The translations under genes and the position numbers were made by a program. Below, in pieces: positions 27,602-29,237 of a stretch of 64,000 nucleotides of DNA. The stretch is from Escherichia coli (GTDB lineage Bacteria > Pseudomonadota > Gammaproteobacteria > Enterobacterales > Enterobacteriaceae). The notes under the pieces were generated by a model, which made no database searches, was not told the DNA's origin, and saw nothing but the letters and a program-made list of their open reading frames with translations. How positions within the stretch are numbered: position 1 is the stretch's first letter; the number at the start of each line of letters is the position of its first letter. The stretch lies in NCBI RefSeq assembly GCF_016903815.1, contig NZ_CP069973.1; one strand, given 5' to 3'.

Positions 27602-27605
27602 GCAC

Positions 27606-27638
27606 GAAAAAGGCCGCAGAGTTTCACCCCTGCGGCCT
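27606..27638 (-). terminator. rho-independent terminator of ldr copy 1
   Basis: Stem ggccgcag/ctgcggcc followed on the minus strand by a T-run; lies immediately after the bcsG stop. Confidence 0.6.
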
Positions 27639-27687
27639 GATCCGGGCGCAAATTGCCATTACGGCAGCCTGACGCCCGCATGACACG

Positions 27688-27795
27688 TTACTTCCGCTTG
27701 TTCAGCCAGTTCATGATCATACTGGCAAGAATGCCAGCAATGACCGGAGCCGCTAAATCATGCCAGAAGGCCATGCCCAGTTCTGCGAGCGTCAT
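27688..27795 (-). CDS. ldrD: Ldr-family type I toxin (35 aa), copy 1
   Basis: MTLAELGMAFWHDLAAPVIAGILASMIMNWLNKRK; ATG at 27793..27795; close to LdrD as I recall it. Confidence 0.8.
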   Translation of the reverse strand: MTLAELGMAFWHDLAAPVIAGILASMIMNWLNKRK

Positions 27796-28088
27796 ATAGC
27801 CGCCTGTGTTGTAATGACAACGTTTCGCGGCTATTCTTGAGTGGTCTAGAGTCAAGATTAGCCCCCGTGGTGTTGTCAGGTGCATACCTGCAACGTGCGG
27901 GGGTTTTCTCTCTCCAGCAACCAATGCCACCAGGGATAAAGCCCCCGCAACATTGCGCCTCACCGGAACCTTTCCGGCTTGCCGCTGATTCTACGGCCAT
28001 TTTTGTTCGTCGAAATCCATCATTTCTTCACTCTGTGCTGTGCATTCAGCAGAATATTATCCGCTTGCAACCGTTGCATTTTTCTTAC

Positions 28089-28121
28089 GAAAAAGGCCGC
28101 AGAGTTTTATCCCTGCGGCCT
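28089..28121 (-). terminator. rho-independent terminator of ldr copy 2
   Basis: Same hairpin plus T-run as copy 1. Confidence 0.6.
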
Positions 28122-28170
28122 GGTCCGGGCGCAAATTGCCATTACGGCAGCCTGACGCCCGTCTGACACG

Positions 28171-28278
28171 TTACTTCCGCTTGTTCAGCCAGTTCACGAT
28201 CAGACTGGCAAGAATGCCAGCAATGACCGGAGCCGCTAAATCATGCCAGAAGGCCATGCCCAGCTCTGCGAGCGTCAT
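28171..28278 (-). CDS. Ldr-family type I toxin (35 aa), copy 2
   Basis: MTLAELGMAFWHDLAAPVIAGILASLIVNWLNKRK; ATG at 28276..28278. Confidence 0.8.
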   Translation of the reverse strand: MTLAELGMAFWHDLAAPVIAGILASLIVNWLNKRK

Positions 28279-28572
28279 ATAGCCGCCTGAGTTGTAATGA
28301 CAACGTTTCGCGGCTATTCTTGAATGGTCTAGATGCAAGAATGGCCCCCGTGGTGTTGTCAGGTGCATACCTGCAACGTGCGGGGGTTTTCTCTCTCCAG
28401 CAACCAATGCCACCAGGGATAAAGCCCCCCGCAACATTGCGCCTCACCGGAACCCTTCCGGCTTGCCGCTGATTCTACGGCCATTTTTGTTCGTCGAAAT
28501 CCATCACTTCTTCACTCTGTGCTGTGCATTCAGCAGAATATTATCCGCTTGCAACCGTTGCATTTTTCTTAC

Positions 28573-28605
28573 GAAAAAGGCCGCAGAGTTTTATCCCTGC
28601 GGCCT
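28573..28605 (-). terminator. rho-independent terminator of ldr copy 3
   Basis: Same hairpin plus T-run as copy 1. Confidence 0.6.
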
Positions 28606-28654
28606 GGTCCGGGCGCAAATTGCCATTACGGCAGCCTGACGCCCGTCTGACACG

Positions 28655-28762
28655 TTACTTCCGCTTATTCAGCCAGTTCACGATCATGCTGGCAAGAATG
28701 CCAGCAATGACCGGAGCCGCTAAATCATGCCAGAAGGCCATGCCCAGCTCTGCGAGCGTCAT
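28655..28762 (-). CDS. Ldr-family type I toxin (35 aa), copy 3
   Basis: MTLAELGMAFWHDLAAPVIAGILASMIVNWLNKRK; ATG at 28760..28762. Confidence 0.8.
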   Translation of the reverse strand: MTLAELGMAFWHDLAAPVIAGILASMIVNWLNKRK

Positions 28763-29237
28763 ATAGCCGCCTCTGTTGTAATGACAACGTTTCGCGGCTA
28801 TTCTTGTATTGTTTGGATGCAAGAATGGCCCCCGTGGTGTTGTCAGGTGCATACCTGCAACGTGCGGGGGTTTTCTCTCTCCAGCAACCAATGCCACCAG
28901 GGATTAAGCCCCCGCAACATTGCGTCTCACCGGAACCTTTCCGGCTTGCCGCTGATTTTACGATTGCTTTTTACCGTCAGCACCCGGCAATCTTCCTCAT
29001 TGCGCGATGCCTTCCAGCTTAATTTCTTTATTTGCAATAGTTGCAGTTCATATCCGAGCTGACTCCAGACTGGTAGTGAAATGCGCAATTTTGTAGAATT
29101 GCGCCTCCTCGCGACCTCCCCAGTGAATCTGTTGCCTCATTTTTTGCATACTGCGTATTCGACTTCTCCACCTGTTGCGCAAGAGAAACTGGGTTTATTC
29201 ATTTTTGCGAGGCCGACTTCTTTCTGGACAGGACTTT

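Follow-up and report, generated by a model that had tools for sequence, protein, structure and literature searches.

The LDR-D toxin–antitoxin locus of Escherichia coli in a three-unit form between bcsG and yhjV

Introduction

The 64,000-nucleotide stretch of Escherichia coli DNA analyzed here (the window) contains three tandem repeats with Ldr-type toxin reading frames between bcsG and yhjV, a position at which strain K-12 has one ldrD/rdlD pair, and the question is whether this triplet is a peculiarity of one strain or a usual form of the locus. In K-12, LdrD is toxic and RdlD counteracts it, toxicity has likewise been reported for LdrA, and the Rdl antisense RNA overlaps the 5′ UTR of the ldr mRNA and not its ribosome-binding site; how Rdl blocks translation has been hypothesized at most, and a mok/hok-like model with a leader ORF (ldrX) has been proposed, not proven (PMC4147584, PMC8309996). 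A sequence-only reading of the window had regarded the triplet as a strain-specific expansion. Based on the analyses described below, the locus is, with a probability of roughly 0.93, E. coli LDR-D in its common three-unit form, with a complete Ldr/Rdl module in each unit. The family, the locus, the three-copy state and the polymorphism are already known from the literature and RefSeq annotation.

Anatomy of the Repeat Array

Tandem Repeats Finder (TRF) delimits a single array at 27604-28962 with a period of 484, 2.8 copies and 96% matches, and a repeat search of the window recovered three in-register copies spaced by 483 and 484 nt, confirming the three tandem repeats of about 484 bp between bcsG and yhjV that had first been described.

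27604..28962: LDR-D-type long direct repeat array, 2.8 units of 483/484 nt (TRF, repeat search, alignment)
27604-28086: repeat unit 1
28087-28570: repeat unit 2
28571-28962: repeat unit 3, truncated on the yhjV side

The array occupies the chromosomal position of LDR-D, downstream of bcsG and upstream of yhjV, and its period and 2.8 copies correspond to the layout of an LDR unit, a direct repeat of about 450-535 bp that holds a promoter, a leader, an ORF and a terminator. The ~392-nt cores of the three units share pairwise identities of 94.4-96.4%. Unit 3 is cut short on the yhjV side, where strong homology stops at ~28962; beyond that point, up to 29014, the inter-unit spacer and the right flank are only 74% identical. 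The array is real, and its units look intact at the level of sequence.

Toxin Genes and Terminators

Each unit contains one ldr toxin gene and one intrinsic terminator.

27688..27795, minus strand: ldr toxin gene of unit 1, MTLAELGMAFWHDLAAPVIAGILASMIMNWLNKRK (RefSeq WP_001521561.1; ORF, Pfam PF13940, RefSeq annotation)
28171..28278, minus strand: ldr toxin gene of unit 2, ...ASLIVNW... (WP_000170738.1; ORF, RefSeq annotation)
28655..28762, minus strand: ldr toxin gene of unit 3, ...ASMIVNW... (WP_001295224.1; ORF, RefSeq annotation)
27611..27638, minus strand: ldr mRNA intrinsic terminator of unit 1 (11-bp stem, loop GGTGAA, T-run)
28094..28121, minus strand: ldr mRNA intrinsic terminator of unit 2 (loop GATAAA)
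28578..28605, minus strand: ldr mRNA intrinsic terminator of unit 3 (loop GATAAA)

All three ORFs have 35 codons, and their translations, with ...ASMIMNW... in unit 1 and the variants listed above in units 2 and 3, read exactly as originally given; the peptides end in ...ASMIMNWLNKRK (unit 1), ...ASLIVNWLNKRK (unit 2) and ...ASMIVNWLNKRK (unit 3). The unit 1 peptide matches the Pfam family Ldr_toxin (PF13940) over its whole length (1-35/35, E=2e-25), and 1-2 residue differences separate it from the peptides of units 2 and 3; together with the Rfam rdlD matches described below, this establishes the Ldr/Rdl type I toxin–antitoxin identity of the array. A scan of the three peptides against NCBIfam gave no model match. 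The allele in unit 3 is the commonest Ldr allele seen in other arrays, and the RefSeq record of E. coli strain 7/2 annotates three Ldr coding sequences at identical coordinates, all of them named as Ldr family. The terminator hairpins of all units consist of an 11-bp GC-rich stem followed by a T-run, and the loop of unit 1 is indeed unlike that of units 2 and 3.

Rdl Antisense RNAs

A search with the Rfam rdlD model RF01813 (gathering score 50) yielded three matches, all of full length.

27844..27909, plus strand: Rdl antisense RNA of unit 1, 66 nt, 5′ tail and terminator-type stem-loop (RF01813, 87 bits, model 1-66/66)
28327..28392, plus strand: Rdl antisense RNA of unit 2 (RF01813, 81.8 bits; fold)
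28811..28876, plus strand: Rdl antisense RNA of unit 3 (RF01813, 81.7 bits; fold)

The Rdl RNA of unit 1 is the counterpart of K-12 rdlD and folds at -29.5 kcal/mol (z -4.0), and that of each unit adopts the expected tail-plus-hairpin fold at about -30 kcal/mol. Each lies on the strand opposite to ldr, 49-114 nt upstream of the ldr AUG. The sequence-only reading had placed Rdl on the plus strand opposite the ldr 5′ leader, which the Rfam matches bear out, but its coordinates (roughly 27930-28000 and the equivalents in the other units) were off by about 85-90 nt, the Rfam sites lying further left; the positions it gave correspond to the 5′ end of the ldr mRNA and the putative -10 region. The 49-nt stem-loop region is identical among the three Rdl RNAs, whose differences (2-6 positions) are confined to the 5′ tail, and cross-repression between units is therefore likely.

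Promoters and Proposed Working of Each Module

A scan of 27400-29300 for consensus sigma-70 promoters returned no sites, so that promoters and transcript ends were placed only by position and homology.

27988..27993, minus strand: putative ldr promoter -10 of unit 1 (TAGAAT; motif position)
28472..28477, minus strand: putative ldr promoter -10 of unit 2 (TAGAAT; motif position)
28955..28960, minus strand: putative ldr promoter -10 of unit 3 (TAAAAT; motif position)
27809..27837, plus strand: putative Rdl promoter of unit 1 (TTGTAA, 17 nt, TATTCT; position relative to the Rfam/K-12 rdlD start)

The -10 element of unit 1 would set the 5′ end of the ldr mRNA near 27981 and give a ~378-nt transcript; this 5′ end and the terminator at about 27605 agree with the length of about 370 nt that Kawano reportedly found for the ldr mRNA in 2002. 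The -35 region of unit 3 would fall in the unique flank on the yhjV side, as it does for K-12 LDR-D. The putative Rdl promoter of unit 1 stops 6 nt before the Rdl 5′ end, and its sequence recurs identically at 28292-28320 and 28776-28804.

In each unit, a separate ~378-nt mRNA and a separate 66-nt Rdl would be produced. On the minus strand, a highly structured ldr mRNA could be transcribed from the -10 element at the right edge of the unit, with a leader of ~185 nt, the 35-codon ORF for the membrane toxin and the GC-rich terminator. On the plus strand, Rdl may be transcribed from a promoter within the ldr leader, and its entire length would be complementary to nucleotides ~73-138 of the leader, which precede the ldr ribosome-binding site. 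This pairing could keep translation of Ldr off, and Ldr, when made, would damage the inner membrane and stop growth. For the window alleles, both toxicity and repression are expected by analogy with the K-12 LdrD/RdlD literature.

Leader ORFs and Differences between the Units

Small reading frames begin in the ldr 5′ UTR of all three units.

27876..27953, minus strand: leader ORF of unit 1 (25 codons, MLRGLYPWWHWLLERENPRTLQVCT), its 3′ half under Rdl
28171..28437, minus strand: ORF of 88 codons in unit 2, leader ATG in frame with ldr
28843..28920, minus strand: leader ORF of unit 3 (25 codons)

The leader ORF of unit 1 may be the 'ldrX' of Gerdes & Wagner. Its start codon is kept in 21 of 24 diverse units, and the downstream frame and length are variable. 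The leader ORF of unit 2 runs in frame into ldr, owing to a G6 rather than a G5 tract (28422-28433). In unit 3, G->A at 28925, which also lies in the 5′ arm, changes the leader Shine–Dalgarno (SD) sequence from GAGG to GAGA, and the minimum free energy (MFE) fold differs from that of the other units and lacks the long-range closure described below. Because of the frameshifted leader of unit 2 and the altered leader SD and predicted fold of unit 3, the three units may not be functionally equivalent.

These changes, together with the separate upstream promoter region of unit 3 and the damaged leader ORFs or Ldr variants found in other arrays (e.g., W->S in unit 1 of HS4), could be taken to mean that the array is real but that at least one of its units (unit 2, unit 3) is silent, deregulated or decaying. 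This reading is improbable, given that all three units retain intact ldr ORFs, SD sequences and terminators as well as intact putative Rdl promoters and Rdl hairpins, that the unit 2 allele is old, widespread and also present in another Escherichia species, and that K-12 LDR-D, which is expressed according to the literature, uses a right end of the unit 3 type.

Predicted Fold of the ldr mRNA

The three ldr mRNAs are predicted to be folded far more stably than shuffled controls, with z-scores of -8.0, -6.3 and -7.8. RNAalifold was then applied to 24 ldr units from nine genera, followed by explicit pair counting: 98% of the cells in the predicted pairs are paired, versus 37-52% with slid partners, and 11 pairs carry double changes across the 24 units. 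Among the predicted pairings is one between a 3′-UTR segment and two 5′ sites.

27645..27661, minus strand: 3′-UTR segment of the unit 1 ldr mRNA, predicted to pair with two 5′ sites (RNAalifold, pair counts, MFE)
28128-28144 and 28612-28628, minus strand: equivalent 3′-UTR pairing segments of units 2 and 3

The first predicted partner is GGCGCA at 27954-27959, directly before the conserved leader ATG; this 6-bp helix is invariant in the 24 units from 9 genera and hence provides no covariation evidence. The second is GUUGUCAUUA at 27812-27821, just upstream of the ldr SD; this 10-bp helix is 98.8% paired in the same 24 units, with two double-change pairs, and the terminal pair of the site occurs as A-U, G-U, G-C and U-A. 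Long-range 5′-3′ pairing in the ldr mRNA, as a predicted structure with comparative support, resembles that of hok.

From these predictions, a tentative model can be drawn, which is possible but doubtful, in which the full-length ldr mRNA is locked in a hok-like closed form. The conserved 17-nt 3′-UTR segment would pair with the SD region at the leader start and with the stretch upstream of the ldr SD. The G->A change of unit 3 would weaken the 5′ arm, and unit 2 would join the leader ORF in frame to ldr via the G5/G6 tract. If this model were true, the units of a variable array would be non-equivalent and array composition would tune toxin leakiness.

Copy Number among E. coli Genomes

Copy numbers were counted with flank-only queries against 5,426 complete E. 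coli genomes, 5,419 of which had both flanks. The flank halves were joined only if the gap did not exceed half the query length plus 500 nt, and the counts rest on this joining rule: cumulatively, joining at up to one unit occurred in 2,098 genomes, at up to two units in 2,626 and at up to three units in 4,438 of the 5,419.

One copy at bcsG-yhjV: ~2,098 genomes, 39%
Two copies at bcsG-yhjV: ~528 genomes, 10%
Three copies at bcsG-yhjV: ~1,812 genomes, 33%
Flanks not joined: ~981 genomes, 18%

Three of the ~981 unjoined genomes were inspected and contain five, four and four units. Two or more copies are present in about 61% of complete E. coli genomes. The three-copy group includes BL21/C41(DE3), strain C and ST131, and the one-copy group K-12, O157:H7 and O145:H28. 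The window is 100% identical over the array region to E. coli strain 7/2, which has a finished genome, and its haplotype (at least 99% identity over 2.4 kb) occurs in about 229 genomes.

The proposal that a normally single LDR-D was expanded into a triplet in a particular strain draws on the single copy of K-12, O157:H7 and O145:H28 and on the restriction of the exact window haplotype to those 229 or so genomes. Against it stand the about 1,812 complete genomes with exactly three copies and the majority with two or more, and the three-copy state has already been published: K-12 has one ldrD/rdlD pair, and BL21(DE3) has three between bcsG and yhjV in a transcriptome figure (Kim et al. 2017, PMC5435950). 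Furthermore, the K-12 locus is an exact unit 1/unit 3 chimera of a three-unit array, as detailed below, and the spacer, only 74% identical to the right flank, is common to other Escherichia species, which indicates that the duplication is old. A strain-specific expansion is thus very improbable: three copies here are essentially the common or ancestral state, which the sequence-only reading had itself named as counting against it. A recent duplication was likewise rejected on the basis of the K-12 chimera pattern and the divergence between units.

Although short-read assembly can mishandle tandem repeats of ~0.5 kb, an assembly artefact, either a false triplication of one LDR or a mis-assembled copy number, is practically out of the question, because 4-6% of positions vary between the units, whose peptides are all distinct, the finished genome of strain 7/2 carries an identical array, and the same architecture recurs in about 1,800 independent complete assemblies; the copies are genuinely diverged, in both peptides and terminator loops, and do not represent a collapsed or duplicated read, as had been argued from the outset.

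Direction of Change and Occurrence in Other Species

The direction of change can be judged from a comparison of K-12 with C41(DE3), the BcsG and YhjV proteins of which are identical to those of K-12. The first 395 nt of the 669-nt K-12 intergenic region are identical to C41(DE3) unit 1, and the last 400 nt reproduce C41(DE3) unit 3 and the adjoining flank exactly; these stretches share an overlap of 126 nt, and there are zero mismatches elsewhere. C41(DE3) unit 1 has the K-12 LdrD allele, and units 2 and 3 share another one, which is widespread. Such an exact chimera is what a recombinational deletion leaves behind. A change from one unit to three in C41 is unlikely since its unit 2 shares no more than 94.5% identity with the K-12 unit and units 2 and 3 carry this other allele. 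Judged from these sequences, recombination between units 1 and 3 most likely removed two units from K-12, and its single LDR-D is most likely the derived state. Unequal homologous recombination between units of ~95% identity could shift the copy number from one to at least five among strains. Tandem duplication has been described as typical of ldr-rdl, with lineage-specific duplication as its mode of evolution (Fozo et al. 2010, PMC2887945).

One genome per species was scanned for the exact 19-nt Rdl 3′ motif, which gave 51 loci that were then compared by BLAST. Two-unit arrays were found in Escherichia sp. E1V33 and in a representative labelled SCPM-O-B-8794, the bcsG genes of which are 88-89% identical at the nucleotide level and the inter-unit spacers homologous at 85-86%, and E. 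whittamii has one unit. The exact motif gave no match in E. albertii and E. fergusonii, reflecting either a mismatch or a true absence. In addition, bcsG is immediately followed by an LDR in Salmonella arizonae and diarizonae, several Citrobacter, Pseudocitrobacter, Kluyvera and the Klebsiella oxytoca group; K. michiganensis, K. spallanzanii and Kluyvera sichuanensis each carry three units in tandem. These occurrences indicate that the LDR locus is ancient and that its tandem copy number appears to have fluctuated repeatedly.

Comparison with Related Systems

The earlier statement that K-12 has a single LDR-D here and a triplet elsewhere proved accurate: MG1655 carries ldrD/rdlD alone at bcsG-yhjV and ldrABC/rdlABC at kdsA-chaA. 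MG1655 LDR-D shares locus, orientation and architecture with the window array, but has one unit versus three. Full-length alignment of the units to LDR-A/B/C/D gave 98.7% identity between the unit 1 body and K-12 LDR-D and about 80% for LDR-A/B/C; the right flank of K-12 LDR-D equals that of window unit 3, and its Rdl is the seed of RF01813. Residue 3 is F in K-12 LdrD and L in the window peptides, which also differ from it at residues 26 and 28. The BL21(DE3)/C41(DE3) array (PMC5435950) likewise has three units at the same locus; its alleles are LdrD(F3) followed by WP_001295224 twice, whereas the window has WP_001521561, WP_000170738 and WP_001295224. LDR-A/B/C at kdsA-chaA resemble the array in family and tandem layout, and Rdl and the leader hardly vary over ~65 nt. 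In contrast, they form a different subfamily, with ~80% nucleotide identity, a 535-nt period, another Ldr C-terminal half and another locus.

The hok/sok systems are similar in being type I toxin–antitoxins in which the toxin mRNA has a long, structured leader and the antisense RNA is located off the toxin ribosome-binding site, with a proposed leader ORF and 5′-3′ fold-back pairing (predicted for ldr), a likeness of mechanism only and not of membership. However, the peptide families are unrelated, and ldr mRNAs are not known to be processed at the 3′ end. The Rfam sok model RF01794 scores 24-30 bits on the ldr leaders, below its gathering score of 59, and these matches were rejected as a sign of relationship; the hokA locus at 49246-49398 in the window scores 124.9 bits on the same model. 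The ibs/sib and zor/orz systems are also type I toxin–antitoxins arranged in tandem in one intergenic region with strain-variable copy number (PMC2887945), but have other toxins and RNAs, and Sib covers the ibs coding region.

Implications

The K-12-centered assumption about this locus is corrected by these results: the single LDR-D of the reference strain is most likely a deletion derivative, and the natural state of the locus would be ldr/rdl modules in tandem, varying in number from one to at least five. For strains other than K-12, this bears on the counting of type I toxin–antitoxin genes, on knock-outs ("delta-ldrD") and on possible cross-talk among Rdl RNAs.

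Leader and annotation of the ldr units

In RefSeq record NZ_CP023820.1 (3996564-3998201), three ldr CDS are annotated; rdl ncRNA genes are absent from the annotation of this interval, although all three rdl exceed the Rfam gathering score. The leader homopolymer of unit 2 (28422-28433, minus strand) is a G6 tract, one G longer, and this extra G brings the conserved ATG of the leader into the reading frame of ldr, creating an 88-codon ORF (28171-28437). The same G6 allele is also found in units of strain HS4 and in a sequence from another Escherichia species (L018).

LDR-like sequences on unexpected records

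A 503-nt contig with a coverage of 0.66 in a "Bacillus sp." assembly (NZ_JABWSY010000055.1) is 92-96% identical to an E. coli LDR unit and is almost certainly contamination. Among the complete E. coli genomes compared, about 27 LDR-unit matches lie on plasmid-typed records, for example at 55466-55823 of NZ_CP061765.1, and a diverged bcsG (81% identity) is also present on such records. The original LDR paper reportedly described plasmids as being without LDRs.

Other loci in the window

bcsQ (22942-23694, minus strand) is interrupted at codon 120 by a stop (...GRYQ*ILIDL...) and is annotated by RefSeq as a pseudogene in strain 7/2, a finished genome identical to the window over the ldr region; the stop could make the strain cellulose-negative. 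An RtT-family RNA match lies directly downstream of tRNA-Pro(CGG) (sites 36852-36986 and 37020-37096, minus strand), even though RtT has been described as a product of tyrT transcript processing.

Possible similarity of ldr mRNA to the hok/sok system

The Rfam "sok" model (RF01794) aligns with the ldr leaders over its full length at sub-threshold scores of 24-30 bits, compared with a gathering score of 59, and the terminal AUG of the model falls on the ldr AUG; this match is no more than a lead. The genuine hokA/sok locus of the window is situated elsewhere, adjoining a cspA-type thermoregulator leader (48293-48720) whose CDS is named cspE by RefSeq.

Matches to RF01794 and the hokA/sok locus (Rfam)
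27793-27946, minus strand, sub-threshold match
28276-28429, minus strand, sub-threshold match
28760-28913, minus strand, sub-threshold match
49246-49547, minus strand, hokA/sok type I TA locus, 124.9 bits

A long-range interaction between the 5' and 3' regions is predicted for the ldr mRNA.

Predicted 5'-3' long-range pairing in unit 1
27645-27661 with 27954-27959 and 27812-27821 (equivalents in units 2 and 3)

In unit 3, a minus-strand G-to-A change at 28925 turns GAGG into GAGA in the SD of the leader and weakens the predicted long-range helix; the MFE fold of this mRNA is unlike those of units 1 and 2. Across 24 units from nine genera, the predicted pairing is retained, with some compensatory change in its 10-bp helix and an invariant 6-bp helix, and this predicted pairing resembles the fold-back of hok.
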